A stretch of 64,000 nucleotides of DNA, taken from Nitrosopumilus sp. GTDB lineage: Archaea > Thermoproteota > Nitrososphaeria > Nitrososphaerales > Nitrosopumilaceae. The stretch's first letter is position 1. Each line of letters begins with the position of its first letter. The notes beneath the pieces are model-generated. The model was not told where the DNA came from and did no database searches. It saw only the letters and a program-made list of their open reading frames with translations. The stretch lies in assembly GCA_965219345.1 (NCBI GenBank), contig OZ244732.1, positions 96,001-160,000 on the forward strand. Reading direction: 5' to 3'. Below, in pieces: positions 30,850-53,149 of this stretch. Both the position numbers and the translations under genes were made by a program.

Positions 30850-31530
30850 TTGAAAATTAGTGAAATTTTTGAATCCATTCAAGGTGAAGGAATTAATGCA
30901 GGAAAAGACTCAATTTTTATCCGAACTGCTCTATGTAATTTAAAATGCTCTTGGTGTGATACAAAATATACTTGGGATTGGGAAAATTTTGATTATGATA
31001 CTGAAGTTCATGAATTATCAATAGATGAAATAAAACAAAAATTAAAAAATTTTACTGCAAATAATATTGTAATTACTGGAGGCGAACCATTAATGCAACA
31101 AGAAGAATTGATCTCATTGATATCATCATTACCAAAAAAATTCTTTATAGAAATTGAAACAAATGGGACTATTCTTCCTTTGGATGAATTAGTTTCATTA
31201 ATTGATCAATGGAATGTATCCCCTAAAACTTCAAACTCTAATAATCTACTTGAACAGTGTGAGATTGCAAATTGTTATAATTTTTTCAAGAATAACCCAA
31301 AATCATTTTTTAAATTTGTCGTAGAAACTAAATCTGATATTTTAGAAATTAATGAACTTGTAAAAAAATATAATATTGATAAATCTAAAATCATTCTAAT
31401 GCCTCAATCTACTACGAAAGATGATTTAATATCAAAAGAACCTTTGGTACAATCTTTGTGTGAGAAAAATGGGTTTAGATACTCATCGAGGTTACATGTA
31501 TTAAAATGGGGAAATACTAGAGGCCGTTAG
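30850..31530 (+). CDS. queE: 7-carboxy-7-deazaguanine synthase (radical SAM)
   Basis: EIFESIQGEG, FIR..CNLKCSWCDT, ITGGEPL, IETNG, SPK, RLH. Confidence 0.93.
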   Translation: MKISEIFESIQGEGINAGKDSIFIRTALCNLKCSWCDTKYTWDWENFDYDTEVHELSIDEIKQKLKNFTANNIVITGGEPLMQQEELISLISSLPKKFFIEIETNGTILPLDELVSLIDQWNVSPKTSNSNNLLEQCEIANCYNFFKNNPKSFFKFVVETKSDILEINELVKKYNIDKSKIILMPQSTTKDDLISKEPLVQSLCEKNGFRYSSRLHVLKWGNTRGR

Positions 31531-31884
31531 TTATTTTGAAACTAAACAATAAGCTGAATTTCCTTCAAAAAATCTTACACTAGATAGCGGTATTTTTCCT
31601 TCAAGATTCTCGTAAATCCATGCTGCAATGTTTTCAGAAGTAGGAAAGTCAAATAATTTATCCAGATCTTTATGGTCTAGTTGGCTGATCACATTCCAAC
31701 ATGTTTTCTTCATTTCATCAAAATCTAAGACCATATTGTCTTGATAAGTAGGGCCTTTATCCACCTCACCTTCCACTTCGACAATTATTCTTGAAGTATG
31801 TCCATGGGGTTGCCCACATTTTGGATGCCCCTTTAATGTATGGGCAAAGTCAATCTCAAATTCTACGCCTAATTTTGTTTTCAT
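31531..31884 (-). CDS. queD: 6-carboxy-5,6,7,8-tetrahydropterin synthase
   Basis: AH.L..HPKCGQPHGH, MVLDF, LDHKDL, PTSENIA, FE. Confidence 0.93.
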   Translation of the reverse strand: MKTKLGVEFEIDFAHTLKGHPKCGQPHGHTSRIIVEVEGEVDKGPTYQDNMVLDFDEMKKTCWNVISQLDHKDLDKLFDFPTSENIAAWIYENLEGKIPLSSVRFFEGNSAYCLVSK

Positions 31885-31962
31885 TGAATCATGACTAATT
31901 ATGTTACATTTAGGAGTTTATCTAACCAAAAAACTATTTTGTGAAAATTATATTAATAGTAT

Positions 31963-32712
31963 ATGAAAACTTGTCCTTGTCCTTGTGGTTGTACTGCTGT
32001 AGCTAATTCACTTGAAGAAAAAGAGAGAATTTTTGGGTGGAGAGGAAAAATCATTCAATCGTATTGTAAAAAATGTAGATATGTATCTCATTCACAAAAT
32101 CCACATACTGAAAATGTAAATCCTATGGTTGATATTATTTTTAAAGGAATTAACCGAGATTATAAATTTACTAATGATTATATTTCAAAGCTTCCAAGAT
32201 ATGATAAAAATGGAAAACTCTTAAGTCATAATATGAAAAATAAATTAGCAAAACAATATTTACTAAATAAAAACCATCTTTTTGTATCACATTTTTTAAA
32301 ATTACTTGATGAATCAGAACCCTATATTGAAGAAGAAAAATTTTTAAAGTTATTTGAAATTTATAATTTTCATACTAAAAAACCAGAAAAAGAAAGTTTT
32401 TTCAATTTTGTAATTTCAGAATCTAAAGAAATTAGTCTTAAACAAGAATTAAATCCAAAAAAACAAATTTTCGTAATTTTGAAAATTTACCAAACGATTA
32501 CTGAAACATATGTAAAAATTCTATCTGAAAAATTAAAAAAATCACCTGCAATAATCATTAGTTTTGTAAGTGATATACATCAAGATTTTATTGAAAATAA
32601 TGATCAAATTTGTATTTTTGATCGTGATATGATTCAATTCTTATTAGAATATAGAGATGATAGACTCAAATTATTTGATGTAGTATTTAATTCAGAAAAG
32701 AATTCAACATAA
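31963..32712 (+). CDS. Hypothetical protein with N-terminal Cys-rich zinc finger
   Basis: CPCPCGC...FGWR...QSYCKKCR; TAATG overlap with the next gene. Confidence 0.7.
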   Translation: MKTCPCPCGCTAVANSLEEKERIFGWRGKIIQSYCKKCRYVSHSQNPHTENVNPMVDIIFKGINRDYKFTNDYISKLPRYDKNGKLLSHNMKNKLAKQYLLNKNHLFVSHFLKLLDESEPYIEEEKFLKLFEIYNFHTKKPEKESFFNFVISESKEISLKQELNPKKQIFVILKIYQTITETYVKILSEKLKKSPAIIISFVSDIHQDFIENNDQICIFDRDMIQFLLEYRDDRLKLFDVVFNSEKNST

Positions 32713-35012
32713 TGCCTCCTAATAAGAAATCTACCGCATACGACAAAATCAACATTGAAGAATTCACAAATGATTGGAATTCTGGAATGAGTTTAGTTGA
32801 TCTAGCTAGAAAATACAACTTTTCCTATCCTGAAAAAGCAAAAAGAATTGGTCAAAAACTTGGTTTGAAAAAACAAAAAAATCTAACGTTTTTCGATAAA
32901 TTTCTAAAAGATTCACGAAAAACTAATGAGCTAATAACAATGTATGCTGATGAATCTATAACTATTTCCAAAATTACTACTCACTTTGGGTTTACCGATA
33001 ATGGATATGTTTCTAGACTTGTTAAAAAAATTGGAATTACTCCACGAAGAGGTGGCCAAGGTAGTATAGAGAAATTTAAGGAATCTAAAAATGAATTTAT
33101 AGAAATGTGGAATGATAATGTTCTCAAAAAAATAATAGCAAAAAAATTTAATATTAGTTATCCAACTGTTAGTTTATGGAGAAAAAGACTCGGTTTAGAA
33201 CCTAGAAGTTTAGGGAGAATTAGGCCTGAATCATTATCAGAAAAAATCGAATTATTATTACTTGAAAATTTAGGCGCTTTAACAACAAAAGAAATAAAAA
33301 AAATATTGAATATTTCGACTGTACATCTTGCTAATTGTTTAAATCTCGAAAAAATTCAAAGACTATCTTTAACTATGCATGTAACTGGTAGGCTGTATCG
33401 CAAACCTAGTGATTATTTTGGTGATTATACTGGACAATCAATTGTGTATTTGCGTGGCATGAATGATAGTTTGATTTTAAAACTATCAAAAATTCTACAA
33501 ACTGGTCGTATGTTTAAAAATAATCTACTCAAGAAAGCAAATTATAATTTTATGATTTCTAGACTAACTGAATCTGAAAAAGATATTGAAAATCGATCAC
33601 AACAATTGTATGGTCTAATACATTTCAAAAATAACCAAAACAAACTTGAATCTATTGTAGAATCACAATTAAAAAAATATCGAATAATTACGAACACATC
33701 AGAATTAATTTCTAGAATAGAGTCAAATGATTCACTAATACCAAAGATCTTGAGTGAAAAGCCTAAATCAAAATTTTATGGAAGAAAATTTGAACCTAAA
33801 TTAGTTATAAAAGAACTAGATTCGTCATATCCTGATGACCAAAAAAGACTCGTTCAAGAAATATTTACCCCATTTAATTTCATTTGTAGAACATCAAATG
33901 ATGAATATTTTGACTTGGAAATAACTTCAGATGATAAATTTTTAATAAAATTAATACTGCATCAACAGCTTACTACCACTAGTCTAAAAATATTTCATAA
34001 TAAATTGCAAGGACAGAAGGGAATTATAATAAATTTTGAATCTATCTCTGAATCTGTTAAAAAACTAGAATATGAAAATATTAGCATTTTGGCAAATGCT
34101 GATTTATTATTATTATTAAACTCATTAGAATTTTTACCTGTAAGGGCAAAATCTTTTGCAAAAATTACTTTTGGAGAGGATAAGGAAAAAATTATTTTTT
34201 GTGAAAATATAGATTTTGAAACTAATATTGCTACAGTGAGTGATTCTGATCATAATACAAAAAAAATATTAATAAAATTTTTAAAACAAATTGAATTACC
34301 AGAAAATGTAGGTAATTCAGATTATTTTAATTTTATTGAAAAATTCAAAACAATATCTATTATTGAAAATATCTCTACTATGGACGAATGTATTGTGAAT
34401 GTTACAAGAGATATTCTAAATAGACATGGAGATATTCTGATTACTTCACAAGTTGATTCTTATATTACTAAAATTTCACTTCTTTACAATTTATTTGATG
34501 AAAAAATTGGTGATGATCATCATGTCACTAGTATTGGTATACTGCGAAATAAGCTAATTCAATGTAATTGTTTATCATGGGAATCTCAAGATTATATTGT
34601 TTTATGTAAACATTCTATTGCATTATTATTTCATTTATGGACAGGGGATATTAATAAATATGATAATGTTGTTGGGGGGGAAACCATTGAGAACTTTTTA
34701 GATTATGTTAATTTCTTAATTAATTATTCTATTAAGATAGAAGAATTTTGGTTTGAAAAAATAGATGGTAAAAAAATCAATCATCATTTAATTCATTATG
34801 CAATTTGTAATCTTATACATGAAAATTATAAGACAACATCTTTTTTCCTTGATTGCGATATTGCTGAAAAGATTGAATTAGAGAATTTAATGGCTGAATA
34901 CAAAAATGAAAAAATAAAATTATTTGAATCTGTAAGAAAACTATCTTCTGAACAAAAAACATTACTTTTGAATACGCTTTTTGCTCAGTTTAGAGATGCA
35001 TACAAAAATTAA
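32712..35012 (+). CDS. Multi-HTH protein with possible degenerate restriction-endonuclease fold and C-terminal SWIM Zn finger
   Basis: Three HTH-like repeats (e.g. IAKKFNISYPTVSLWRKRLGL); CNC-x11-CKH SWIM motif. Confidence 0.7.
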   Translation: MPPNKKSTAYDKINIEEFTNDWNSGMSLVDLARKYNFSYPEKAKRIGQKLGLKKQKNLTFFDKFLKDSRKTNELITMYADESITISKITTHFGFTDNGYVSRLVKKIGITPRRGGQGSIEKFKESKNEFIEMWNDNVLKKIIAKKFNISYPTVSLWRKRLGLEPRSLGRIRPESLSEKIELLLLENLGALTTKEIKKILNISTVHLANCLNLEKIQRLSLTMHVTGRLYRKPSDYFGDYTGQSIVYLRGMNDSLILKLSKILQTGRMFKNNLLKKANYNFMISRLTESEKDIENRSQQLYGLIHFKNNQNKLESIVESQLKKYRIITNTSELISRIESNDSLIPKILSEKPKSKFYGRKFEPKLVIKELDSSYPDDQKRLVQEIFTPFNFICRTSNDEYFDLEITSDDKFLIKLILHQQLTTTSLKIFHNKLQGQKGIIINFESISESVKKLEYENISILANADLLLLLNSLEFLPVRAKSFAKITFGEDKEKIIFCENIDFETNIATVSDSDHNTKKILIKFLKQIELPENVGNSDYFNFIEKFKTISIIENISTMDECIVNVTRDILNRHGDILITSQVDSYITKISLLYNLFDEKIGDDHHVTSIGILRNKLIQCNCLSWESQDYIVLCKHSIALLFHLWTGDINKYDNVVGGETIENFLDYVNFLINYSIKIEEFWFEKIDGKKINHHLIHYAICNLIHENYKTTSFFLDCDIAEKIELENLMAEYKNEKIKLFESVRKLSSEQKTLLLNTLFAQFRDAYKN

Positions 35013-35051
35013 TTTCAAATAAAATACCAAATTTACCTAAAGGTTTTATTC

Positions 35052-37577
35052 ATGCAAATTAATATTCTCATACGTATGTTAATTGAAAAATATGGTTTAA
35101 AGGCAATTCCATTTCAATCTCAAGGCTCAGAATCTGGAAAATACCCTTTTGTTCCATCTGAATCATTTAATGAATTAGTATCCGAAATTGAAAAAATCCA
35201 AGAACAAAAAGATTCTGGTGCAATAATAGTTCAAGGGCCACAAGGGAGTGGAAAGACAGCTACTAGAAAAGGTCTTTTTGAGGCATTTTCATCAAAATCG
35301 GGGGTTGGCATCATTACTATACATCTATCTTCCCTTGATTTGAAAGATTTAGCATGGTCTATAATAGATGAGGCAAAAAAACAGAATTATATTGATAATG
35401 GCTTTCTTGAAAAAAACTCAGAAGGTGAAGAATTTAAAAATTTTACAAAACCTAAACTAGAACAAATAATTACTAAAGTGCTAGAACAAATTGTATCAAA
35501 AAATGAATTGGGAATTTTAATTATCGATGAATTTGATATTATTTCTCAGCCTACTTTTCATGATACAAATGATCAAACTATTTTTCTTCATGCTATTACA
35601 AATATTTTAAACTCTATTAATGAATCAAAAATAATTCAAGAAAAATCATTTTGTACTATACTTGCACAAACTGATAGAAGCTCTGAAGACTTCAGAAACT
35701 ATATTTCCGATAGACACAAACCTCTTTCAACTAGATTAAAGAGAAATATCAATATCAACTATAACTTTGATGTAACAAAAAAAATTATTCTAAAAAGATT
35801 AGAAACTGAACAGTTATCTGGATTTGAAAAACCTAATGGAAATGAATTATTCCCTCTAGATGAGGAAATTTTAAAATCCCTTTATGATAAAATTAATCAT
35901 TTCACACAAAGTAATTCAATGAAAGCATTCAGAGACATGGAACAAATCTTACACGATTCAATTGAAAAATCATTAGAAAATAATCTACCAAAAGTTGAAA
36001 TGAATATTATCCAAGAAATTTTTACTCGTATATCTCCTAAATTTGATTATAATCCTAAAGAAAATAGGAGGAAAATATCCATTGAAACATCTAATGAATT
36101 AAAGGGTGTAATGAAAGACCCAGATCAAAATAGGTCTAATTGTATATATTTGAATGGAATTAAAACTGCTATGGAATATTGGGAGGCAAGAGAATACTCG
36201 TCAGTCGAATCAAATCTTGCATCTTCAAGATATGAAAATGAAGAAATGGGCATTTTTATTAGCAGTATTAAGATAAACTTACGAACTACTGATAGATCTA
36301 AATACGCAAAAAATATTTTTTGGTACACTGTCTCAAAATCTGAAGATAAACCTCCATTAAATGATGGTGACTTTAAACAAATTAATTTATTTTTAGAAGA
36401 AAATAAATCTGAACAAATTGGTTGCCAATACTCTATTCTGACAATTTTTTCAGAAGAATTTGCTGGAAAATCAGAACAAGAATTACAAAGTGAATTAATT
36501 CCTACTGTTGATCGAATTTTTTACAGAGGAAATTCATTCAAACAAGCTATAGCAGGAATATATTTATCACAATCTGATGAAGAACGGGAAGAATTTAGAG
36601 ACGAATGGGATACTCACCTTCACAAATTTTGTGCTAATACTTTAGGTTCAACACTATTTGATCTTGGAGCAAAAATTGACAGTAGACATATATCATTAAT
36701 TCAATATTTGTATGCAAAAACGATTGTTAAACAAAAATTTAAGAAAGATGATTGGTTATTTTGGGGTAAAAAACTTTCTCCCGGAAAAATGATTAGAGAT
36801 GATGTATTTAAACAAATTAAACTTTTGGGATTTACCGATGATGAGTGTAACGCTTTTGTACCAAGAAATTTAAAATCTCTTAAATCTTTGATTGATTCAA
36901 AAGATGGACAAGATTCACTTTCAAACGATGAAATTGAAAATTATTTTGAAAATAATTATACGCTTAACGCAGCTAAATTATTGGGAATTTTGACTAAAGA
37001 AAATCGACTGTATGATATTACTTTACTAAAAGAAAGAATTTCTAATGAATTAATTGATGATATTGATAATGCATTACCCGAAATTGAAACCACTACTATG
37101 TCTGATAGTTTGAAAATGTTAAATCTCTTAAAAGAAACATTTGAAAAAATTGATGAAGAAGATGATTATATCAAAAAAGTTGTTTCGTTACAATTCATTC
37201 TGAAGCAATCACCTCTTTTATTGTCTGATATTGGATCTGCAAGTGGTGGTGAATCTGCAAGTGGTGGTGAATCTGCAAGTGGTGGTGAATCTGCAGGTGG
37301 TGGTGAATCTGCAGGTGGTGGTGAATCTGCAGGTGGTGGTGAATCTGCAGGTGGTGGTGAATCTGCAGGTGGTGGTGAATCTGCAGGAATAGAGATAACC
37401 AAATTCATGCTCATAGAGACTTGTAAAAATATTCTAGGCGGTGGGCAAAAATTAAGCCTCTCAACTCTAAAAAAAGAAATAGGTAAAAAACCTGGATTTG
37501 AAGATCAAAGCAAATGGGCTGGTGAGCTTGCAAAATTAATCCTAAATGACATTCTACTAATTACAATTGATGAGTGA
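35052..37577 (+). CDS. Large P-loop ATPase (DpdH/BrxD-like position)
   Basis: Walker A GPQGSGKT, Walker B ILIIDEFD, PLSTRL Arg-finger-like motif. Confidence 0.8.
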   Translation: MQINILIRMLIEKYGLKAIPFQSQGSESGKYPFVPSESFNELVSEIEKIQEQKDSGAIIVQGPQGSGKTATRKGLFEAFSSKSGVGIITIHLSSLDLKDLAWSIIDEAKKQNYIDNGFLEKNSEGEEFKNFTKPKLEQIITKVLEQIVSKNELGILIIDEFDIISQPTFHDTNDQTIFLHAITNILNSINESKIIQEKSFCTILAQTDRSSEDFRNYISDRHKPLSTRLKRNININYNFDVTKKIILKRLETEQLSGFEKPNGNELFPLDEEILKSLYDKINHFTQSNSMKAFRDMEQILHDSIEKSLENNLPKVEMNIIQEIFTRISPKFDYNPKENRRKISIETSNELKGVMKDPDQNRSNCIYLNGIKTAMEYWEAREYSSVESNLASSRYENEEMGIFISSIKINLRTTDRSKYAKNIFWYTVSKSEDKPPLNDGDFKQINLFLEENKSEQIGCQYSILTIFSEEFAGKSEQELQSELIPTVDRIFYRGNSFKQAIAGIYLSQSDEEREEFRDEWDTHLHKFCANTLGSTLFDLGAKIDSRHISLIQYLYAKTIVKQKFKKDDWLFWGKKLSPGKMIRDDVFKQIKLLGFTDDECNAFVPRNLKSLKSLIDSKDGQDSLSNDEIENYFENNYTLNAAKLLGILTKENRLYDITLLKERISNELIDDIDNALPEIETTTMSDSLKMLNLLKETFEKIDEEDDYIKKVVSLQFILKQSPLLLSDIGSASGGESASGGESASGGESAGGGESAGGGESAGGGESAGGGESAGGGESAGIEITKFMLIETCKNILGGGQKLSLSTLKKEIGKKPGFEDQSKWAGELAKLILNDILLITIDE
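37236..37388 (+). repeat. In-frame 18-bp tandem repeat, 8.5 copies (SASGGE x3, SAGGGE x5)
   Basis: tctgca(a/g)gtggtggtgaa read directly. Confidence 0.97.
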
Positions 37578-38560
37578 TACAAATAAATCAAAATATAATC
37601 AAGGCACCAGCTGTAGATAACTTAAATGATTTGAAAGATATTATTAAAAGTCTTGAATATAATTCCATTCCTTACAGCTATATTGACAAACGACGTCTCG
37701 AAAATCTTTTAGAAAATAAAAAACTTTCAAAAGATAATTATGATATTATTTGTAATTGGAAAATTGAACAAGACATTCATGATAACAAAGGGGATTTACA
37801 ATCAATTGTCTCACTGATGAAATCTCTTGGAATAATTATAACTGAAAAAATACAGAGAGATAACTTGGAACAACCACTTGGCTTTGCTGGTCCCATGCTC
37901 AATTCATTTATTGCTAAATCTGTTGATGCTGTAAAATTAACTGAGATAGGCCAAGTTTTGTGTAATTTACTTGAAGAAACTAATACTGAATCTTTAATTG
38001 AATATGATAATCTTTTGTTTTGGAGATTCTTACACAGTAACATTACTCACAATTTTCAAAAATTAATTGAAGATAATGATTCATATAATAAAGGAGTTGA
38101 TGTTGTGTTACAAAAAATTGAAATGGATTCTAGGTCTGCAAATTATTTTTTGAAATGGACTAGTTATTTTGAATTGCTCGGAATTGGATCAAAACTTCTT
38201 ATCCAAAACAAAGTTGCGAAAAAAATAATTTTTTGTACTATTTTTGAATTAAATAAATTGGAATGTGGAATATATGGAATTCAGAAACTTTCAAATCATG
38301 TTTCAAAAGAACTTGATTTTTCAAATAATTTAATTAATTTCTTTTTGATTTTTGAAATCATCTTACGTCATATACAATTATCAAATGAACATGAAAAAGC
38401 ATTAGAGGGAACCACTTCATCTAGGGGTGAACGATCGTTGTCAAATTTTCCAAATGTAACTATGTTGAAAATCAATCACAAAATTAACTTCAATTCAATA
38501 ATGTCTCATGTTTCAAACTCTGAATTAGCCACAATATGGAATATAGGTACAAAACCATGA
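37574..38560 (+). CDS. Hypothetical protein with winged-helix-like segment (DpdG-like size and position)
   Basis: SLG.I...KLTEIG wing motif, W..YFELL; overlaps both neighbours. Confidence 0.6.
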   Translation: MIQINQNIIKAPAVDNLNDLKDIIKSLEYNSIPYSYIDKRRLENLLENKKLSKDNYDIICNWKIEQDIHDNKGDLQSIVSLMKSLGIIITEKIQRDNLEQPLGFAGPMLNSFIAKSVDAVKLTEIGQVLCNLLEETNTESLIEYDNLLFWRFLHSNITHNFQKLIEDNDSYNKGVDVVLQKIEMDSRSANYFLKWTSYFELLGIGSKLLIQNKVAKKIIFCTIFELNKLECGIYGIQKLSNHVSKELDFSNNLINFFLIFEIILRHIQLSNEHEKALEGTTSSRGERSLSNFPNVTMLKINHKINFNSIMSHVSNSELATIWNIGTKP

Positions 38561-41247
38561 GTAATGGTGGAAATGTCGATATTGTAAGGGAAATTATTTA
38601 TGAACTAGAGAAAGATCTTATCAAAAAAAAGAAATTTTTAGATGATGATGGAAAGCCTATTTTTATCACTAATGTTGAAATTCAAAATCATAGTGAATTA
38701 CCCAATAATGATATAATTAATGCAATTAAAAAATTGAAAGATGATGAATTTATTGTTTTTGATAATCAACTCATTTCTCTTGAAGAGAGTGTTGAATTTT
38801 TAATTCGTTCTAGAATATATCACACCATTTGGTGTATTTATAAAACAGAAAATCGGCCAGCAATGGAACGTAATGTGGATGATTTTCAATACATCCGACA
38901 TATTAAACGAACACCATCCCAAAACCACAATTTAGATGAACTCTTTAATGATCCTGATGTTAAAAATATTCTTCGATGGGGAAAATCAGATCATCAATTA
39001 ATTGTTGAAATTATTAAACATCTAAAAAACACAACTAATTACAAAAAAATGAGTCAATTTCAGCTTAATTCTACTACAACTATCATCAAGAACCTTGATA
39101 CTCATAATGTTTCAAAAGGTCTTGCAATTGTAGCTGGTACAGGATCTGGAAAATCTTTTGCGTATCAATTCCCTTTGTTGCTTTGGATTTTACATAAAAA
39201 GATTAACAAGTATAATGATCTTATAAAATGCAATATCAAACCATCTCAACTATATGTTAATTGTTCAGCAATTCTTATTTTTCCAAGAAATTCCTTAGCA
39301 AGAGATCAAAATGATTCAATTAAAATCTTGATCGAAAAAATTAATGATTTTATTTTGAAAAATGTTCATGATAAAAATAAAAAAGAATTTCTTTTTATAA
39401 AAAATCCCATTACTGATTTTGGAAGTCGTGCTGGTAAATTAGATGAAGTTTATGGCACAGACACTAGATTGGGATATCCTGATCTGATTATCACTACTCC
39501 CTCCTCACTAAATCATAGATTGCTTAATCCTGAATGTCATCCTGTATTTCGAAATGGTGTAGATATAATATTATATGATGAAATTCACATATGGGAGGGA
39601 ATTAGTGGAGCTGAAATTGCTTCGTTAAACTCCCGACTGCAAAATTTGTTTAAAATAGATCCTCCAAAATATCCTCTTTTCATTGGTATATCTGCCACAA
39701 TTGATAAACCTGATCTTCATTGTCAAAAATTGTTTTGTCTATTGAAAAATGATCAAAAACCTTCAATAATAACTCAAAGTAATTTAGATGATACCAAAAT
39801 ATTTTCAATTGAACATCATTTAATTCTAAAACCTGCAAGTGGTCGTTTTGTTAATGGTGTTGCCATGGAATCTACATCTTGCTTAATACATAATAGGAGA
39901 GATGGTTTATCACAATATCATGATGATGTAAATAATGGAAGATTTGTTAATGCAGAAAATAAACCTAAAAGCATCACTTTTCTTGATTCATTAAATGGAT
40001 CAGCAAAATATACTTCTGATTTTAATGATTATGAAAATTTTAAATGGGCCCACGGAAATACTCCTCCTGCTCAAACTACTAGAGTAAAACGTACGTATTA
40101 TTTTTACAATCGACCCAAACAAGGACAAAGCGGAATACCTCATACATTTTCATGTGACAATTGTATAGATAGATCTAATCCTGAACTCTTTGATTGTGAA
40201 TTTTATAAAAATGGCCAATGTTGGTATTATTCTTTAGATGACGCTGGTCAATTCAATAATATGAGATTCGGAAACTGGCATCCGTTTGTACGGGGGTTGG
40301 TAGACATCCCAATTGACAATATACGATCAATAAGAGTATCTTCTCAAGAAAAAGCTCCAAAACCAACTGAAGACAAATACAATTATTTTAAGATGAATCA
40401 ACAAGTGAAGGTTTGGACTGCAGGTGAGAATCAATCTCACACATTTCGTTCTCAAATTGATCATGTTATTACAACGCCTACTCTAGAAGTTGGAGTTGAT
40501 TTTAACAATATTAAAGAAGTAATTCAAGTTGGCTCTATACGTTCACCTTCTACTTACAAACAAAAAGTTGGAAGAGGTGCCCGAGAAGGAAATCTCAAAG
40601 AAGGATTATTTGCAATGAGCATAATTGATGAATCTCCTTTATCCTATTATCATTTTAAACATTTTAAAAGGTTGATCACTTCTACTCTAGATCCGTTAAA
40701 ACTTGAAATTACTAATCCTAATGTGGTTCTCGCAAATGCATTTTTATCTATTTTTGATTTTCTTGCATTCAATGGAATTAATTTATTTAGAATAAAACTT
40801 GGACGGGGTAAATATTTGACAGACACTGAAATAGACACTAATTATAAGAATGCATTAACGTTGATCGACAACGACAAAACTAAAAAGTTTATTAAAAGTT
40901 TCCTAGATCAATTGGGTTTTCCTAATTCAGCTGCAAAAACCAATGATATAATTAATGATGTCAAAAATTTCTTGACAGAACTTTGTAAAAAAATTACTAT
41001 TAAAATACACGATAAAAACGAGACTCATACTCTGCATGAGTGGTTTATACGTTCTACTGAAGATCATACCACCTACGAAAATTTGATACACGAAGAAAAA
41101 TATGATGTTATTAAATCAACTGGAGATGAAACAGAAAAAATCCTTAATGCGATAGCGGATTTAAAAGATGTTTACACCAAATTCTTTCCTGGAGATGACT
41201 CAATTAGTAAAAAATTAGATTTGTTACGAGGTGAATTAATTGGATAA
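38536..41247 (+). CDS. SF2 DEAH helicase, DpdJ-N/DrmA-like
   Basis: FQ (Q motif), AGTGSGKS, FPRNSLARDQ, DEIH, ISATI, TPTLEVGVD, QKVGRGAR; probable start at 38557. Confidence 0.88.
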   Translation: MEYRYKTMSNGGNVDIVREIIYELEKDLIKKKKFLDDDGKPIFITNVEIQNHSELPNNDIINAIKKLKDDEFIVFDNQLISLEESVEFLIRSRIYHTIWCIYKTENRPAMERNVDDFQYIRHIKRTPSQNHNLDELFNDPDVKNILRWGKSDHQLIVEIIKHLKNTTNYKKMSQFQLNSTTTIIKNLDTHNVSKGLAIVAGTGSGKSFAYQFPLLLWILHKKINKYNDLIKCNIKPSQLYVNCSAILIFPRNSLARDQNDSIKILIEKINDFILKNVHDKNKKEFLFIKNPITDFGSRAGKLDEVYGTDTRLGYPDLIITTPSSLNHRLLNPECHPVFRNGVDIILYDEIHIWEGISGAEIASLNSRLQNLFKIDPPKYPLFIGISATIDKPDLHCQKLFCLLKNDQKPSIITQSNLDDTKIFSIEHHLILKPASGRFVNGVAMESTSCLIHNRRDGLSQYHDDVNNGRFVNAENKPKSITFLDSLNGSAKYTSDFNDYENFKWAHGNTPPAQTTRVKRTYYFYNRPKQGQSGIPHTFSCDNCIDRSNPELFDCEFYKNGQCWYYSLDDAGQFNNMRFGNWHPFVRGLVDIPIDNIRSIRVSSQEKAPKPTEDKYNYFKMNQQVKVWTAGENQSHTFRSQIDHVITTPTLEVGVDFNNIKEVIQVGSIRSPSTYKQKVGRGAREGNLKEGLFAMSIIDESPLSYYHFKHFKRLITSTLDPLKLEITNPNVVLANAFLSIFDFLAFNGINLFRIKLGRGKYLTDTEIDTNYKNALTLIDNDKTKKFIKSFLDQLGFPNSAAKTNDIINDVKNFLTELCKKITIKIHDKNETHTLHEWFIRSTEDHTTYENLIHEEKYDVIKSTGDETEKILNAIADLKDVYTKFFPGDDSISKKLDLLRGELIG

Positions 41248-43477
41248 CCTAGATGAAATTAAAGAAATGATTTCCATGAAAAAAAATGAATTAAATGATA
41301 TTGATAAAGAATTTGAACTTACTGGACCATTGATCACTTTAATGAATGCATTAAAAAAAATTAAAGAGATTAAATCGGTTAAAAGTAATACTGGTATTGA
41401 TTTAATTAATTTAGAAGTATACTTGTCTAAATTAACTGCGAATCATCAATCAGAACATCCTAAATATGACTATACTTTGTTTCCTCTACTTACTGGTTTA
41501 CCTAGACGTCCATATTCTAAAACTACTGATTATTTTGGAGGGGGGATAGGATCATTGATCCAAATTGAAAAAAAAGGCACTGGTCTGCCTCAAACTACAA
41601 TACCTGCAAACGATGTTTTTATTTCCATGTATCCTGGTTCTATTAGTTATAGATTTGGAGCATATAATCAAATTCGAATACCTTGTGGCCAATATTATGA
41701 GGATTTTGTTAGTCATTTACAAGGATTGCATAAATTATCCAAATCTCCGATTTCCACATTTGAAGACAATGATGTTTATGAGATAGAAAAAATCATTGGA
41801 ATTGCATTAGATATTATTAGGAATAGAAATCATGGCAACATCCCAATTTGTCCTAGGTGTTTGTCAATCAGTGTTTTTAGTGGACCACAAAGAGAACAAT
41901 GTGATCACATTAGAGATAAAACCGAATCTGTAGTAATGGTAAAAAATTTTCAACATCAACCAATTTTGAAAACAAAAGAAAATATTGATGAACGAAAAAT
42001 TCTTGAGTCAAAAAAGTTTACTTTTCCTCTTAATGAAATATTTGATAAGGTAGAATTTTTGGGAAACGCCCAAATTGTAACTGTTGCTACTGGATTTTCT
42101 AGACAAGCTTCATGGGGACAAGGTGCAAATGCTGGACATAATTCTGTTCATGTAAAATATAATCCATATGTTGGATATAAAATGGATACTAATGGAGTAA
42201 TATTCAAAATCAAAGAAATTCCTGAAAATTTTATTGATCAAATATTTGATGAATATTTTCTTGTTCGGGATATTTTAATTGATATTTTTGCAGAAAAAAT
42301 TGAAAAAATTATCCATGACAATGATAGATCAATTTTTGAATTAGAACTATGGTTATCTGGAATTATTAAAACACTCAATTTGGATTCTATTGATGATTCT
42401 TTTAATGTTAATGATGTTTTACAGGCTCTTCTTGGTTCAAATTTCAGGGAGAATTTTAAAAATAATATTGTTAGAGAGATAAGCTACTATTCACACATTC
42501 CAAATAATATTGGGCCTGATATAATTGATATTTTCAGTCAGGAGATAAACTCAGTATCCATTTCAATAGATGACTTAAAATTAAAAATTAAAGCTTTACT
42601 TAAAATTTCATTATCCTATTTAGCATATATGAGTGCATTAATAACATCTGGTTCGATGAACAAGGATGTAGATTTTATTTACCCTCAAGGGGCTAAAAAC
42701 GATGTTGTAATTTTTGACAGTGTTTCAAACGGTAATGGTGCTTCAAAATTAATTAATGATTATCTTATTGGAGAAGAAACGTCAGTTTCTCAAGAAAAAG
42801 GTTTACGTTCAAAATATTTCCAAGAGACTCTTTTTGAATTATTACTACCTTGCTCACAGGGTATTGCTGATAGAATTTTTTTCCAGAATTTAGATGATAA
42901 TTTTTCAAATTTCACTAGAAATGATTTGATTACTTATAGGTTAAATGAATTAAAAGAACAAAATAATTCTGCAACAGAGGAATTCAATCAAATAAAAAAT
43001 TCAAAAATTGAAAATATGTTTCCGATATCTATTGGAAAAAGACCTTTGCAAAAGCCTGATGGTGCCAATGTCGAAAATAAAAAAATCCAAGAAATTGCAC
43101 ATATCTGTATACACGGCTGTCCTGAATGTTTGCTTTTGAATAGTTATTCTGGACCTTCTATTCCTAGGTTGGAGCGATTTTATGTAAGCAAATATCTACT
43201 AGATCTTTATTTCAAATTTGTAACAGAGAAAATCCGTATAAGATCAAATGAAAGTATTTCGAATATTGAGAAAATTCTTAATCAATATGGTGTGATAATT
43301 ATTTCTCAAAAAATCACTGGAACTAACTGTGATTTTAGTGATTTGCTAACAAAAATTAATTCCTTAATTGGGGAAAAATTCAACAGTAAATTGGTAAAGT
43401 TTTCAGGAATTTGGTTTGATTGTCCAATTACAAAACCTTCTGATTTTAACATCTCTATTTTGGTAAGTGTGATATAA
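41240..43477 (+). CDS. DUF1998-like helicase partner (DpdJ-C/DrmB-like)
   Basis: CPRC, IFDSVSNGNGAS, CIHGCPECL typical of DUF1998 domains. Confidence 0.72.
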   Translation: MDNLDEIKEMISMKKNELNDIDKEFELTGPLITLMNALKKIKEIKSVKSNTGIDLINLEVYLSKLTANHQSEHPKYDYTLFPLLTGLPRRPYSKTTDYFGGGIGSLIQIEKKGTGLPQTTIPANDVFISMYPGSISYRFGAYNQIRIPCGQYYEDFVSHLQGLHKLSKSPISTFEDNDVYEIEKIIGIALDIIRNRNHGNIPICPRCLSISVFSGPQREQCDHIRDKTESVVMVKNFQHQPILKTKENIDERKILESKKFTFPLNEIFDKVEFLGNAQIVTVATGFSRQASWGQGANAGHNSVHVKYNPYVGYKMDTNGVIFKIKEIPENFIDQIFDEYFLVRDILIDIFAEKIEKIIHDNDRSIFELELWLSGIIKTLNLDSIDDSFNVNDVLQALLGSNFRENFKNNIVREISYYSHIPNNIGPDIIDIFSQEINSVSISIDDLKLKIKALLKISLSYLAYMSALITSGSMNKDVDFIYPQGAKNDVVIFDSVSNGNGASKLINDYLIGEETSVSQEKGLRSKYFQETLFELLLPCSQGIADRIFFQNLDDNFSNFTRNDLITYRLNELKEQNNSATEEFNQIKNSKIENMFPISIGKRPLQKPDGANVENKKIQEIAHICIHGCPECLLLNSYSGPSIPRLERFYVSKYLLDLYFKFVTEKIRIRSNESISNIEKILNQYGVIIISQKITGTNCDFSDLLTKINSLIGEKFNSKLVKFSGIWFDCPITKPSDFNISILVSVI

Positions 43478-44025
43478 TGACTCATGTTGATGAAGATAAC
43501 TATTCTATTGTTGAACTTGATATTTTGTCTTTAGAATTAATAAAATCTACCAATAACAATAATGTTGAAGTGATTATTATTTCTCCTTGGATTAAAGATT
43601 ATGCCATACCTATCACTTGGCCTTCTTTCACAAGTAATTTTATCGATATCACTGACATGCAAAGAACAAGTGATATTCTGAGATTATTATTACAAAATAA
43701 TGTATCTGTGACTATTGTTACTAGCTCTCCTGCAAAATTAAAAAGTGACAATTGGAACCAAAAACATATTCTAGATGCTACAGGATTTTGTGAACAAATT
43801 AAAAATGCTGGAGGAAAAATTGTTTACAATAAAAAAAATCATGGTAAAGTAACTTTAACTTCAGAATGCAGTTTGACTGGTTCTGGTAATTTTACGAATA
43901 AGGGTAGAGATCCAAAATTACAAGATAATGCTGGAGATCTAATTAATAAAAGTGTGGATGAGCGAAGTTATATCGCAAAACTTGCATGGGCAAATAAAAT
44001 TATCGATGAAGGACAATCAGAATAA
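43477..44025 (+). CDS. Phospholipase D-like nuclease (DpdK/DrmC-like)
   Basis: IISPWIKD and HGK-x8-TGSGNFT single HKD-type motif; follows the helicase pair. Confidence 0.82.
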   Translation: MTHVDEDNYSIVELDILSLELIKSTNNNNVEVIIISPWIKDYAIPITWPSFTSNFIDITDMQRTSDILRLLLQNNVSVTIVTSSPAKLKSDNWNQKHILDATGFCEQIKNAGGKIVYNKKNHGKVTLTSECSLTGSGNFTNKGRDPKLQDNAGDLINKSVDERSYIAKLAWANKIIDEGQSE

Positions 44026-44044
44026 TAAATTGAAATCAAAGAAA

Positions 44045-45304
44045 TTATTTTCCAAAATAATACAAACCCATTCTTCTATCTATAGAATTACACCAAGTCG
44101 CTAATCCTAATAATAATGATACATCTTCTTTATCTTTCATAGAATACTTTTTTGATCTTTTCAAATCATTTACAATGTCATCAAAACTTTGGGGTGTATC
44201 AGATAACAGTTTTAACATGTAATTGTATTCTGGAATGTTTTCTTTTAATTTTTTATTCAACTTTGATTTACCTGATCTTTTTTCCAATGACTCTAAGAAA
44301 TCTTTTCCTTCATTACTAAGATAAACAACACCCTTACGTTTAGTTGTAAATTTTAACAATTCTCCTAATTTTGTATAGCTACCATTCTCTGTTTCATATC
44401 TTGAATGTAACAAATTTTTTAATTGAATTCCATCTTTAATTGATTCCAAAAATTTGGGAAATTTAGTAACTGAGATCTGGGGTGGTTTAAAATTACCTGT
44501 AACTGGACTTGTTTTTTTATAATCTACATTTTGTTTATTGCCTTTTTCTGATGAACTTAATGCTTTATTTGAAATAATAAAAGTAAAACTTCCATATCCT
44601 CGATATGATAAATCCACTCTTAATGGTAAATCATCACTCAAACTTAGTTTAACTTCTCCACATTGTGCTACTATCTCAGATACTGTTGTTAAATAATCTA
44701 AAATTGTCCAACTTTTTACATCTCTTCTAGGAATTTTATTTTTAAGTGAATCAAATATTTGCCCTGAAAGATCAATGGTTTTACGATATGATAATCCCCC
44801 CTCATCTGAACCTACAATAAATTTTCCATCTTCCATACCAAAAAAGATCTCACGTGACACTGTTGATGCTTTAACTATCTCCAAAAATTCACTGGATGGA
44901 ATTGTTATTTGTGCATCATAATTCAAACTTTGAGGCTCTGGTAAGTTGAATTGTTCCTCCTCAAGCCATTCTAATTCATATCTAGTCTTTCCACTATTTA
45001 CAAAATTTAGTGCAATGTTTCTTTTTCTAATATCCAAATATAGTGTCTTATCTTTAGTAATTTTTGAAATGACTTGTCTTAATTTACCAATGTCTGCTTC
45101 ACTTGTAAATTTCTCAGAATTCCAACTAAACCCATCAAAAAATGAAGGTTGTAATTTTATGTCAATATAGCAAAAATCATGAGGATCAATACTTCTAATC
45201 CTTATCCCATTAGAACTTACATCAAATCTAGCTACGTCTGTAAATTTTGTAATTCCACGAAAGATAGCTTTGAATAATGATAAATCATCAATTTTTAATT
45301 CCAT
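44045..45304 (-). CDS. PCNA sliding-clamp domain fused to a C-terminal winged-helix-like domain
   Basis: First ~245 aa follow PCNA (FKAIFRGI...GIRIRSIDPHDFCYIDIKL...F; LDYL; DLPLRVD..GSFTFIIS); linker; ~145-aa tail with LGELLKF...VYLSNEGKDFL wing. Confidence 0.8.
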   Translation of the reverse strand: MELKIDDLSLFKAIFRGITKFTDVARFDVSSNGIRIRSIDPHDFCYIDIKLQPSFFDGFSWNSEKFTSEADIGKLRQVISKITKDKTLYLDIRKRNIALNFVNSGKTRYELEWLEEEQFNLPEPQSLNYDAQITIPSSEFLEIVKASTVSREIFFGMEDGKFIVGSDEGGLSYRKTIDLSGQIFDSLKNKIPRRDVKSWTILDYLTTVSEIVAQCGEVKLSLSDDLPLRVDLSYRGYGSFTFIISNKALSSSEKGNKQNVDYKKTSPVTGNFKPPQISVTKFPKFLESIKDGIQLKNLLHSRYETENGSYTKLGELLKFTTKRKGVVYLSNEGKDFLESLEKRSGKSKLNKKLKENIPEYNYMLKLLSDTPQSFDDIVNDLKRSKKYSMKDKEDVSLLLGLATWCNSIDRRMGLYYFGK

Positions 45305-46354
45305 TTACTTTCTACCAAACAATACATTTGAAATACTATTGTATTTTCTCTTTAATTTAGCATATCTCCATAAATAATCTAGAGATGATCTCTTGTAAAT
45401 CTCGTTTAGATATTTTTCATATTCTTCTTGCCCTTGTTTGATTAGTTTTTTTGCTAACTTTCTTTCATTTTTCATGACATGATCATTGTGAATTGCTCTC
45501 GATTTCCAATCATCCCATAGTGAATCTTGATTTACTCTACAAACTGGGCAATCACATTCTTGTAATTTTTTCAAATCTTTTCTTTTTAATAATGCACCGC
45601 CTCCAAACTTGGCTGTGTTATTGCCTACATACCTCTCAGCCGTGCCGGGTAATACAATCTGACCAAATGCAGCCTTTCTTCTATATCCTGATGAATCTGT
45701 ACTGTCTATTCCTAGATAGAATCCAAAATGTAACGAAAGTGGTGATGAACCTAATCCCATAATGTGGACATTGTAATCTGTATTTTGTTTTACACTTTCT
45801 ACAGTATACGATAACATATCAATTAGATTTTTGTTTGGTTGTCTATCTCCAAAAAATCCATTATAGTTTGTAAATTCAGGATTAACAATACTTCCAACTG
45901 CTACATAATCTGAATTCCCATACTTTTGAATCCATTTCAAATTTTTCATTAATGATTTTTTATTCCATGCATGAATTGAAGGAACTAGTTTTTCATCCAA
46001 ATTTGTAGATGATTGCCAATACTGAATATTTTTTGCAGTCTCTTTCCATCTTTTTTGCATTGTTGAGGGAGACATTCCATTTTTAAATGGATAATCAAAT
46101 GGAATTGTTTTATCAGGTTCTAAAGTTTCTTGAATATCTATAATTTTTTCTAAATCTAATTCTATATCTTGCATATTTGCTGTAAATGCTCCATTATCTA
46201 GAAACAATTTCCCAGGATTGTATGGAAGTTTTGGTTCTTCTTTTTTGTAATAGTTGATAGCAGAATCCATAATGTGATCTTTTCTACGATCTGTTTTTAC
46301 AGGAGCAGTTGGTTGTTCGCCCATCCATAACAATACATCTTCATTTTGAGACAT
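45305..46354 (-). CDS. dpdA: tRNA-guanine transglycosylase paralogue, DpdA-like (putative DNA 7-deazaguanine inserting enzyme)
   Basis: FLDNGAF, PFDYP, HIMGLG, DSTDSS (nucleophile Asp), CDCPVC...H Zn site; 349 aa with no PUA domain; near queD/queE, helicase and PLD. Confidence 0.72.
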   Translation of the reverse strand: MSQNEDVLLWMGEQPTAPVKTDRRKDHIMDSAINYYKKEEPKLPYNPGKLFLDNGAFTANMQDIELDLEKIIDIQETLEPDKTIPFDYPFKNGMSPSTMQKRWKETAKNIQYWQSSTNLDEKLVPSIHAWNKKSLMKNLKWIQKYGNSDYVAVGSIVNPEFTNYNGFFGDRQPNKNLIDMLSYTVESVKQNTDYNVHIMGLGSSPLSLHFGFYLGIDSTDSSGYRRKAAFGQIVLPGTAERYVGNNTAKFGGGALLKRKDLKKLQECDCPVCRVNQDSLWDDWKSRAIHNDHVMKNERKLAKKLIKQGQEEYEKYLNEIYKRSSLDYLWRYAKLKRKYNSISNVLFGRK

Positions 46355-47805: not shown

Positions 47806-47921
47806 AAAATTAACATAATATCTTCTCATATATGACAATTTCATAAAATATTATATTTCATCTAGGAAGGAAAATCTCATTTATTATAAAAAGTTACATA
47901 TTAGTAGTTTCATTATTTTTT

Positions 47922-48809
47922 ATGAATTATGATTGTCCCTTAAAATGTGGAAAAACCATCTATTTTGAAGAAATCAAATTCAATGATGGATTTTCATTTA
48001 ACATTCCATGTGAAAATAAACTTGGAACAATTCATGATTGTAAATATGATAATATAGAAAATTGGGAAAATTCTGGACATGTAATATATGATCATCCATT
48101 ATTCAAATCAAACAAGATTTTGCAAGAAGCTATCACTAAAAAAGAAAACGGAAATTTAGAAGAATACAAAAAAAATATTCAAAAAGCAATTAAAGAAGAT
48201 CCTGGATATGATAGTCTAAATTATTTGTCAGAGGCATATCAGGTAAATAATGAACTTGATGACGCACTAACTGCCACAATAACTCATTTGAGATTTGAAC
48301 CAAATCAGTGGGAAAGCATGATAGAAAAAGCGCAAATATTGACTGAAATGAAAAAAGAACCAGAAGCAATTGCTCATTTGAAAAAATGTATTGAAAACTA
48401 TGATCTGTTTAATGATCCTGAAGAATCTCCACGAGGAGGATGGGATTATAGATCTGGGTATTCCGGATATGGTTATTTGTATTATTGTATTGGAATAACA
48501 TATTTGTCAATGCGAGATTCATCAAATGCCAAGATCTATTTGGAATTAGCAGTTGCATGGATAAATGAAAATAACTCTGATAAAGTTTTGACAAAAGATT
48601 GGTTTAGTGAAGCATATTATAGATTAGGAGATGTCTTTGAAAATTTACGTGAACATAAAAAATCTTTAGAGATGAATTCAAAGGGAAATAATTTCTTAGA
48701 TGCAAAAAAAATTCAAAAGAAAATAAAAGAATCAATGACAATCAATACTATTGTGACAGATACTGCAAATAGTATCCGTGAAAGGAAAAAAATACATTTG
48801 AACCTATAA
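47922..48809 (+). CDS. TPR protein with N-terminal putative Zn finger
   Basis: CPLKCG...HDC, then several TPR-like repeats (AYYRLGDVF). Confidence 0.75.
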   Translation: MNYDCPLKCGKTIYFEEIKFNDGFSFNIPCENKLGTIHDCKYDNIENWENSGHVIYDHPLFKSNKILQEAITKKENGNLEEYKKNIQKAIKEDPGYDSLNYLSEAYQVNNELDDALTATITHLRFEPNQWESMIEKAQILTEMKKEPEAIAHLKKCIENYDLFNDPEESPRGGWDYRSGYSGYGYLYYCIGITYLSMRDSSNAKIYLELAVAWINENNSDKVLTKDWFSEAYYRLGDVFENLREHKKSLEMNSKGNNFLDAKKIQKKIKESMTINTIVTDTANSIRERKKIHLNL

Positions 48810-48814
48810 CTAAC

Positions 48815-53114: not shown

Positions 53115-53149
53115 AATTATTATATAGCATGTCAATAGTATGCATACTA
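53115..53149. promoter_or_regulatory. Divergent promoter with TATA element and 14-bp perfect palindrome
   Basis: attattatata at about 53116-53126; TAGTATGCATACTA at 53136-53149. Confidence 0.55.

Follow-up and report, generated by a model that had tools for sequence, protein, structure and literature searches.

A Nitrosopumilus gene block pairs a TGT-fold enzyme with a PCNA-like clamp in a predicted Dpd-like deazaguanine restriction-modification system

The window analyzed here comprises 64,000 nucleotides of Nitrosopumilus sp. (assembly GCA_965219345.1, contig OZ244732.1, positions 96,001 to 160,000 of the forward strand). Positions 30850 to 46354 of this window hold a block of 11 tightly packed genes (approximately 15.5 kb) that forms one unit and that we interpret below as a putative Dpd-like 7-deazaguanine restriction-modification system (Table 1). 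In the open reading frame (ORF) map of the window, queE on the plus strand and queD on the minus strand lie tail to tail, followed by seven plus-strand genes (31963 to 44025) in which five of the six junctions overlap by 1 to 25 nt. Nineteen nucleotides separate the end of this run from the stop of a minus-strand pair, whose PCNA-like and TGT-like genes adjoin with zero gap. The GC content is 0.26 to 0.31 from approximately 30 to 56 kb, compared to about 0.35. An earlier reading of the locus, made from the letters alone and hereafter called the sequence-only reading, had named these genes in a thaumarchaeote. Every named gene was found where that reading had placed it, the host is of the Nitrosopumilus type, and the family assignments of QueE, QueD, helicase, PLD, PCNA, and TGT hold in library scans. 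Likewise, the SWIM, Walker A/B, DEIH, and HxK motifs, as well as the two Cys clusters of the protein that it had labeled DUF1998-like, can be read in the sequence and are invariant or nearly so.

Table 1. Genes of the block and the adjoining nuclease gene, with positions in the window
Feature	Positions	Strand	Basis of assignment
QueE, 7-carboxy-7-deazaguanine synthase, extra island copy	30850..31530	+	phrog_2076 6e-59, TIGR03963 1.3e-34, Radical_SAM 2e-15
QueD, 6-carboxytetrahydropterin synthase, extra island copy	31531..31884	-	PTPS 3.9e-23, TIGR03367 3.9e-22
249-aa protein, N-terminal Cys cluster	31963..32712	+	Cys 4, 6, 8, 10, 35, 38; phrog_19700 3.9e-4
766-aa protein, N-terminal helix-turn-helix (HTH) matches and C-terminal SWIM-type zinc finger	32712..35012	+	Sub-threshold HTH matches; motif read
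841-aa P-loop (STAND/ORC-type) ATPase, first conserved gene of the effector operon	35052..37577	+	AAA_22 7.6e-7
328-aa protein, conserved partner between ATPase and helicase	37574..38560	+	Position; no family match
903-aa DEIH helicase, equivalent of the N-terminal half of DpdJ/YprA-type helicases	38536..41247	+	PADLOC DpdJ 1.1e-29
745-aa protein (g745), equivalent of the C-terminal (DUF1998-type) half of DpdJ/YprA helicases	41240..43477	+	Two Cys clusters; fused relatives
182-aa DpdK-like PLD-family nuclease	43477..44025	+	PADLOC DpdK 1.9e-8
419-aa PCNA-winged-helix fusion	44045..45304	-	NF002220 3e-25; predicted model
349-aa TGT-fold protein, catalytic domain only	45305..46354	-	Pfam TGT 4.4e-16, phrog_887 9.2e-14
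472-aa metallo-beta-lactamase/beta-CASP (RNase J-like) nuclease	46426..47844	-	Lactamase_B_2 3.2e-13, TIGR00649 1.2e-23

The outermost gene of the minus-strand pair encodes a TGT-fold protein. Its AlphaFold model (pLDDT 84, pTM 0.83) finds its best structural match in the archaeal tRNA enzyme arcTGT, both in Foldseek (E 1e-9) and in VIA, where comparison with 1j2b gave a Z of 27.4 over 308 aligned residues (root mean square deviation [rmsd], 3.5; 17% identity). Eukaryotic and bacterial TGTs came next (Z 24 to 26), and viral TGT/DpdA-like models matched more weakly (TM 0.45 to 0.58), the top one being a protein of a Sulfolobales rod-shaped virus (E 7.6e-11). The bacterial DpdA structure 7UI4 was absent from the PDB sequence profile search at E up to 10; its absence from the 50 matches listed by Foldseek or VIA has no bearing on a difference in fold. 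Family members are approximately 345 aa long, and D53, D87, D220, C267, C269, C272, and H289 are invariant in the 26 sequences of the family profile. In Pyrococcus arcTGT they correspond to the catalytic Asp residues and the Zn site, and they align in the same way with the host's own arcTGT (hhalign 97.4%, 240 columns). The island protein stops where residues 320 to 503 of the host arcTGT start. It is therefore a TGT paralogue with intact catalytic residues that, like DpdA, lacks the part after the arcTGT catalytic domain, and in sequence it stands closer to the tRNA TGT of archaea than to the DpdA of bacteria; we predict that it acts as a DNA 7-deazaguanine transglycosylase. The family counts 164 clusters (E up to 1e-5), with source names that read only hypothetical or tRNA-ribosyltransferase, and its hosts are Nitrosopumilaceae, Nitrosocaldaceae, Conexivisphaerales, Bathyarchaeia, Verstraetearchaeota, Freyarchaeum, and one WOR-3 bacterium.

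The second gene of the pair encodes a full two-domain PCNA in residues 1 to 245 (PDB profile E of ~1e-31 to archaeal PCNA). In the predicted model (pLDDT 78.3), this part superimposes on PCNA with a Z of 25.7 (241 aligned residues; rmsd 2.8) and a TM of 0.85 to 0.87 when normalized to Sulfolobus PCNA subunits. A low-confidence, disordered linker (residues 247 to 276) leads to a helical domain (residues 279 to 409) of tandem winged-helix type. Residues 279 to 342 match a MarR-type winged helix (Z 8.2, 64 aligned, rmsd 1.9 to 2.1) and residues 274 to 417 the FokI recognition region (Z 8.1, 142 aligned). In the Atlas comparisons, for which stored homologues of the window's PCNA fusion were used, the model of a homologue resembled tandem winged-helix families at TM 0.65 to 0.69. 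The PCNA call of the sequence-only reading is thus refined to a fusion protein with a C-terminal domain that is probably of the tandem winged-helix type. The family comprises 63 clusters, all of 405 to 450 aa except for two shorter ones, and no relatives were found in 2.9 million viral contigs.

Relatives of the block were collected by scans seeded on the TGT-family profile, which gave seven informative genome loci and 80 metagenome loci; their ORFs were labeled by phmmer with queries from the sequences of this analysis. Two of these loci, L024 and L089, possibly belong to the same organism, and L022 is the congener genome G317. In G317, conservation extends exactly from QueE to the TGT gene, and the block adjoins LeuRS as it does in the window. 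The class also has a distant member, G034/L024, in which the TGT gene, PCNA fusion, ATPase, 328-aa homologue, helicase, g745 homologue, and PLD gene are collinear on one strand with overlapping ends. In 69 of the 87 loci, the sequence continues downstream of the TGT gene for at least 600 nt; of these, the PCNA fusion follows directly in 42, a DUF5591 gene is adjacent in 16, and 11 have neither. All 18 PCNA-fusion loci with long flanks carry an effector set, which is an ATPase-helicase(-g745-PLD) operon in 15 and a HerA/NurA set in 3. Because the TGT-seeded set is biased, the linkage was also tested in reverse in 401 genomes of the class. Seven of these genomes have a member of the TGT family, and g745 and the PCNA fusion occur in the same three, each beside the TGT gene. 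In a phylum sample of 401 genomes, the g745 profile matched only G000 itself.

The PCNA fusion is an obligate neighbor of the TGT gene, and the system is a widespread archaeal family rather than a one-off. The synteny comparison that the sequence-only reading had called for thereby shows a block that is conserved in G317 and recurs in many archaeal contigs. That reading was right to treat the locus as one unit. Its convergent restriction and modification arms, however, are a lineage-specific layout, as most relatives are collinear single operons, and the Zn-finger, HTH-SWIM, and QueE/QueD genes were seen only in the Nitrosopumilus loci. The 249-aa protein, which has no Pfam or PADLOC family, was likewise seen only in these two loci and is 63% identical in G317. 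The 766-aa protein (SWIM motif CxCx13CxH at residues 618 to 634; 57% identical in G317) was not found in 87 other loci and is a candidate lineage-specific DNA-binding or regulatory subunit.

Identity to G317 varies along the block. The marking genes are 79 to 88% identical (TGT, 87 to 88%; QueD, 85%; QueE, 79 to 80%; PCNA fusion, 79%), compared to 67% for the neighboring LeuRS and 47 to 63% for the effector-arm genes. This suggests that the marking arm was exchanged recently or is strongly constrained and that the restriction arm diverges fast or swaps alleles.

In a quick TGT tree (SH-aLRT support only, careful search unfinished), PCNA-linked TGTs fall mostly in one group of 48 rows, 40 of which are PCNA-linked. 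Within this group, DpdJ/K-type and HerA/NurA-type effectors are interleaved, and therefore the TGT-clamp pair has recombined with different effector sets. Docking on a sliding clamp usually takes place via a conserved peptide at the extreme C terminus of the client (PIP-type motifs). A tail motif, I-S-x-x-L-F, lies within the last 14 residues of 32 of the 46 PCNA-linked TGTs, and a loose form of it is present in 42. None of the 18 DUF5591-linked TGTs has the motif, and it is found in 3 of the 18 with an unseen partner, all three on contigs that end <200 nt past the gene.

A sister branch of the TGT family (L018, L019, L088 to L112, and L119 to L127) has a DUF5591 gene in place of the PCNA fusion, usually together with HerA and a protein of 1,200 to 1,400 aa. 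Two loci, L115 and L120, carry the PCNA fusion plus a DUF5591 gene. The C-terminal part of the host arcTGT has no Pfam match and hence no tie to DUF5591. Nucleoside 2-deoxyribosyltransferase-like genes lie near TGT loci of different types (L025, 12438 to 12860; L055, 4712 to 5131; L124, 855 to 1205; L126, 600 to 989 and 12706 to 13107), and a role in base or nucleoside salvage for the mark, or as effector, is possible. In the bacterial loci L036, L039, and L044, FolE is followed by two proteins of approximately 310 to 320 aa and one of approximately 665 to 735 aa, with QueE nearby. The first ~310-aa protein shows a very distant TGT-like match (23 to 25% identity, no Pfam TGT match at 1e-4) and may represent another undescribed DNA-TGT family.

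The putative restriction arm is encoded by the plus-strand run, and the catalytic motifs of its effector families are all conserved. In the family of the 841-aa ATPase, Walker A (GK[TS]) is present in 18/18 ungapped rows and Walker B (DE) in 20/20. Generic STAND/ORC-type P-loop matches were obtained for 16 of the 20 proteins, and no BrxC or DpdH model matched any of the 20. Inside the window's ATPase gene, positions 37214 to 37411 hold eight in-register 18-nt units encoding a hexapeptide repeat rich in Gly, Glu, Ser, and Ala, likely a flexible, length-variable linker before the last ~70 residues. The 328-aa protein matched nothing in any library scanned (PADLOC to E 10), and none of the 16 proteins encoded at this place in the loci matched Pfam. 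It had been called wHTH-like, a label for which there is a weak lead from Atlas, where FokI recognition domains (0.88) and DpdG-like proteins (0.87) came up below the counting level. For the 766-aa, 841-aa, and 328-aa proteins, no kinship with DpdG, DpdH, or DpdI was detected by PADLOC (E up to 10), by BLASTP/phmmer against the Paenibacillus dpd cluster, or by hhalign, in which the ATPase scored 7.7% against the H-position protein and the 328-aa protein matched nothing.

The next three genes carry the homology to known restriction systems. The 903-aa helicase matches the NCBIfam DpdJ model at 1.3e-27, and its family aligns by hhalign with residues 29 to 675 of a Paenibacillus plasmid DpdJ (probability 100%, E 3e-38); the DE[IV]H motif is present in 19/19 family members. 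Because its 96 bits lie far below the equivalog cut-off of 800, the helicase is best described as a DpdJ homolog, not an equivalog. The g745 protein has two CxxC sites, which are kept in 14/14 relatives. It has no match in Pfam (including DUF1998) or PADLOC, its profile has no PDB sequence match, and its family gives only weak collinear matches to the C-terminal half of DpdJ (hhalign, 7 to 8%). The g745 profile retrieved 87 proteins among 1.84 billion representatives, 23 of which were scanned with PADLOC. In all 14 long proteins (1,161 to 2,001 aa), the g745 match lies in the C-terminal half and DpdJ is the top model for the N-terminal half (E 1e-23 to 1e-53), and 4 of them end in a DpdK-type PLD. 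Among the shorter proteins, eight of nine have no PADLOC match. Locus L126 offers a natural fusion within a TGT-linked operon, where a single 1,600-aa ORF combines the helicase family (8 to 828, E 2e-267) with the g745 family (853 to 1585, E 4e-33). Together, the long fused relatives and the L126 fusion indicate that the 903-aa and 745-aa genes encode the halves of one DpdJ/YprA-type helicase. The PLD protein matches NCBIfam DpdK at 6.6e-8 (32 bits versus a cut-off of 100), its family aligns with DpdK by hhalign (95.8%, E 7e-9), and the HxK...SxN residues H122, K124, S136, and N138 are present in 12/12 members. The sequence-only reading had proposed a restriction core of DISARM/Dpd type, and these matches bear this out.

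The QueE and QueD genes of the block come in addition to housekeeping copies. Elsewhere, the 99.5% complete host genome encodes a normal 503-aa arcTGT (at 829 kb), a second PTPS (C1:889 kb), a second, housekeeping QueE-like gene (~C1:549 kb), QueC (547 kb), and two PCNA paralogues. Among the relatives, the neighbors of the TGT-PCNA pair include QueC and/or QueT in L023, L025, L082, and L094, and QueT in L073. That que genes adjoin the TGT-clamp pair is the main reason why the TGT-like enzyme is read here as a preQ0-consuming writer. The DpdC family (DUF328/PF03883), whose Dpd member turns dPreQ0 into dADG, has no match in the whole genome. Near 16 related loci, it was found once, in L081, a DpdJ/K-type relative whose PF03883 gene (3488 to 4153, minus strand; E 2.9e-11) lies ~6 kb from the TGT gene. 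Its presence hints at a further conversion of dPreQ0 in some lineages.

The closest parallel to the block is the bacterial Dpd system (dpdA to dpdK of Salmonella Montevideo), with which it has in common, going by the available text of two sources (PMC10164549, PMC5699537), a TGT-family enzyme, preQ0 genes, a DpdJ-type YprA helicase, a DpdK-type PLD protein, and residence on a mobile island. The logic of a deazaguanine self-mark combined with restriction of unmarked DNA, predicted here, would also be shared. Like DpdA, a TGT paralogue without the tRNA-binding parts, the window protein keeps the catalytic Asp residues and the Zn site and ends where the C-terminal part of arcTGT would begin. However, it has no match to DpdA models and is nearest to arcTGT. 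No DpdB or ParB model matches in the block, and the PCNA fusion stands at the partner position. Bacterial DpdA, according to PMC10164549, needs DpdB, a ParB-fold ATPase modeled as a ring around double-stranded DNA. The block also lacks DpdC, DpdD, DpdE, and DpdF, for the last of which the only matches are weak and fall on a generic helicase C-domain. The sequence-only reading had seen no recognizable DpdB, DpdC, DpdE, or DpdF. The model scans agree and extend this to DpdA, DpdD, DpdG, DpdH, and DpdI; apart from the weak DpdF matches, the PADLOC and NCBIfam scans gave matches to DpdJ, DpdK, and DrmA. Finally, the DpdJ equivalent of the window is split into two genes that keep the Cys clusters.

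DISARM consists of the DrmA helicase, the DUF1998 protein DrmB, and the PLD protein DrmC together with a methyltransferase (DrmMI or DrmMII). The block resembles it in that the helicase, which belongs to the same YprA superfamily, and its Zn-cluster "canopy" half are separate genes, followed by a small PLD gene. In PADLOC, the window helicase matches DrmA at 3.3e-11, compared to 1.1e-29 for DpdJ, and neither DrmB nor DrmC is matched. Unlike DISARM, the block has no methylase domain, and its mark is predicted to arise by base exchange, not methylation. A DNA methylase was found near 1 of 16 related loci, ~7 kb away and beside an integrase. The association with methyltransferases, in place of TGT and que genes, that the sequence-only reading had named as a reason to abandon its proposal is therefore not what the relatives display. 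According to the main text of a preprint on YprA helicases (10.1101/2025.09.15.676423), a split helicase is typical of DISARM, and canonical Dpd systems have lost a four-Cys cluster that deeper-branching Dpd-like systems keep. The two-gene, Cys-bearing helicase of the window fits both statements.

The same preprint describes, in its available part, BRIGADE, a Dpd-like system of haloarchaea that likewise combines deazaguanine biosynthesis genes, a YprA helicase, and a PLD nuclease in archaea. BRIGADE is restricted to halophiles there and usually has two YprA helicases of an ARMADA-like branch, DpdG, and DpdHI/BrxC, whereas the Nitrosopumilus block has one split helicase, no detectable DpdG, DpdH, DpdI, or BrxC, and a PCNA fusion. 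The words TGT, PCNA, Nitroso, and Thermoproteota are absent from the preprint's main text. BREX-related capture (BRC) systems are described in the accessible portion of PMC12839542 as including an optional TGT homolog, without DpdB or DpdC, that is proposed to mark self DNA for a multiprotein effector. Their universal HerA/FtsK translocase, PglZ, and BrxC-like proteins are all missing from the window block. The sister TGT loci L028 and L088 to L112 carry HerA, a PglZ-like protein, and large ATPases, and the DUF5591-type loci probably overlap the published BRC systems; that paper, from 2026, covers some of the sister loci and in its searched text never mentions PCNA. In phages and archaeal viruses, as far as the consulted text of PMC6884629 goes, DpdA is likewise a stand-alone TGT catalytic domain linked to que genes and acts on DNA. 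It differs in protecting viral DNA from host restriction and in having no restriction arm. A 2026 survey of archaeal immunity (PMC12988326) does not mention Dpd, deazaguanine, DISARM, or PCNA in its accessible text. The searchable literature yielded no description of the TGT-PCNA-fusion pair or of a thaumarchaeal system of this kind, and the supplementary tables of the YprA preprint may list the clade. As judged from these comparisons, the whole set appears to match no defined system and has its own conserved partner, the PCNA fusion, as well as its own subunits.

We consider it reasonably probable that the block encodes a Dpd-like restriction-modification system of two modules with a 7-deazaguanine mark, and that the transglycosylase is brought to DNA by a PCNA-like clamp rather than by DpdB. 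The docking on the clamp, taken by itself, is close to an even call and perhaps slightly below it. In this scheme, the island QueD and QueE, together with the host QueC, would raise the supply of preQ0, and the 349-aa TGT-fold enzyme would swap guanine in double-stranded DNA for preQ0. The resulting self-mark would probably stay dPreQ0, because no DpdC-type enzyme is present. The PCNA fusion would form a ring or a DNA-bound platform on which the TGT-fold enzyme docks via its conserved C-terminal tail, thus doing the DNA-engagement job that falls to the ParB-like ATPase DpdB in bacteria. The restriction module, consisting of the ATPase, the 328-aa protein, the two-gene helicase, and the PLD protein, would translocate on DNA, detect the missing mark, and cut. 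Because the TGT-PCNA pair is joined to an unrelated HerA/NurA set in other archaea, it may be regarded as a portable marking cassette. A broader proposal is more tentative, and we hold it somewhat likelier to fail than to stand: across TACK and Asgard archaea, such a cassette, in which a winged-helix-fused clamp recruits the TGT enzyme by its tail, would write 7-deazaguanine processively or along with replication and would have been joined repeatedly to unrelated effectors.

Several observations weigh against this interpretation. No DpdA model matches the TGT-like protein (PADLOC at E up to 10; NCBIfam up to 0.01), and the PDB sequence-profile search with its family returned arcTGT only; that it acts on DNA is suggested by the genomic context and the loss of the arcTGT C-terminal part. 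QueC is absent from the island, and the island QueD and QueE were found only in two Nitrosopumilus loci. With regard to docking, 4 of the 46 PCNA-linked TGTs lack the tail motif even in its loose form, and the motif may be a clade trait rather than a docking signal, because PCNA-linked TGTs mostly fall in one tree group. The winged-helix assignment is a supported lead and not a proof, since Z values of about 8 are borderline. On the effector side, the ATPase and the 328-aa protein have no detectable relation to DpdG, DpdH, or DpdI. Lastly, the reverse tests rest on three genomes only, and the locus counts are TGT seeded and so do not show how frequently the helicase operon occurs without a TGT gene.

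Other readings of the same genes make different use of this evidence. In a modification-dependent, type IV-like system, the TGT-fold protein on its clamp would recognize or excise 7-deazaguanine or another odd base in viral DNA, which the helicase and PLD protein would then degrade. TGT chemistry is a reversible base exchange, viral TGT-like models resemble the window protein, and the tandem winged-helix domain resembles modules on restriction-endonuclease-like proteins. In addition, deazaguanine pathway genes occur in 16 of 182 archaeal viruses listed in the available text of PMC6884629. Dedicated genes for preQ0 supply and uptake, however, fit a writer and not a reader, and, as in transglycosylases, neither the pocket Asp nor the two catalytic Asp residues vary; we regard a type IV-like system as unlikely. 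We are slightly more reserved still about a restriction-modification system with another mark, in which the enzyme inserts or removes a base other than preQ0. The large distance of the family from characterized TGT and DpdA proteins leaves room for such a substrate, the deoxyribosyltransferase-like genes near L025, L055, L124, and L126 could be read in this way, and the DpdC-family gene of L081 hints at further processing in some lineages. Against it, the que genes point to the preQ0 pathway, and the host genome is without the DpdC family.

The minus-strand pair might also be an anti-restriction cassette of a mobile element or virus that happens to lie beside an independent DISARM/Dpd-like helicase system. 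Low GC content, integrases or transposases beside the relatives L056, L059, L062, L074, and L081, and the combination of the pair with different effector sets would agree with such an origin. Yet no virion, terminase, or integrase gene lies in the 26- to 56-kb region, and 2.9 million viral contigs yielded no PCNA fusion and a single TGT-family fragment (L137, at a contig end with no other component). Moreover, the pair and the effectors form one overlapping collinear operon in many loci, with an effector set in 18/18 of those with long flanks, which makes this origin improbable. Least credible, to the point of being very improbable, is that both proteins serve housekeeping, as paralogues that merely duplicate the tRNA transglycosylase and the replication clamp and take no part in defense. 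Both folds are those of housekeeping proteins, but the distribution is patchy (7/401 and 3/401 class genomes for the TGT family and the PCNA fusion, respectively), the full arcTGT and two PCNAs are encoded elsewhere in the host, the arcTGT C-terminal part is lost, and the linkage to nuclease or helicase operons is constant. The observation of the block is real, and the interpretation offered by the sequence-only reading is supported as far as sequence analysis reaches.

The patchy, island-like distribution marks the gene block as mobile, and its surroundings contain further genes of interest. Between 26 and 56 kb, other defense-type genes are present (CARF/Csa3-like, Abi-like, and Hjc-like and NOV_C nuclease folds). 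Within the same low-GC island, 47922 to 49267 and 53140 to 54964 encode a TPR protein, an Abi-like protein (PADLOC PDC-M34B, 5e-7), a CARF/Csa3-like protein (HFX_2341, 8.6e-34), and an Hjc-like endonuclease fold. The RNase J-like gene (Table 1) is the immediate upstream neighbor of the TGT gene, in the same orientation, an arrangement also seen in the relative L055 (5227 to 6633). No counterpart adjoins the block in G317, and the gene possibly encodes an accessory nuclease outside the conserved core. A search of the island flanks gave no attachment-site repeats. Two 42-nt direct repeats (27641 to 27682 and 27711 to 27752), 98% identical and 70 nt apart, lie just beyond the low-GC region. The sole tRNA gene of the window, a tRNA-Glu (26279 to 26353), lies ~1.3 kb upstream of these repeats and was the only Rfam match over 25 to 58 kb. 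A sigma-70/terminator scan, uninformative for an archaeal host, gave 112 sites, compared to 111.7 in shuffles. On the genome's second contig (C2; 41,585 bases), no island protein was matched.

To our knowledge, experimental demonstrations of deazaguanine marks in DNA are limited to viruses and, among cells, to bacteria with Dpd systems. The locus and its relatives predict the same chemistry in ammonia-oxidizing and other uncultured archaea, ecologically dominant groups in which defense against viruses is poorly known. If true, this would be the first deazaguanine DNA modification in cellular archaea and the first case of a sliding clamp that tethers a base-exchange enzyme. That a base-exchange enzyme is combined with a clamp of the PCNA type suggests a new route of bringing a DNA-modifying enzyme to its substrate and bears on the question of why bacterial DpdA needs an ATP-driven, ring-like partner. 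In addition, the TGT-clamp pair occurs with two effector sets that are unrelated to each other, and such reuse constitutes a natural experiment on the recombination of marking and restriction modules. Nanopore or SMRT assemblies of such archaea may show systematic base-calling signals at the marked sites.

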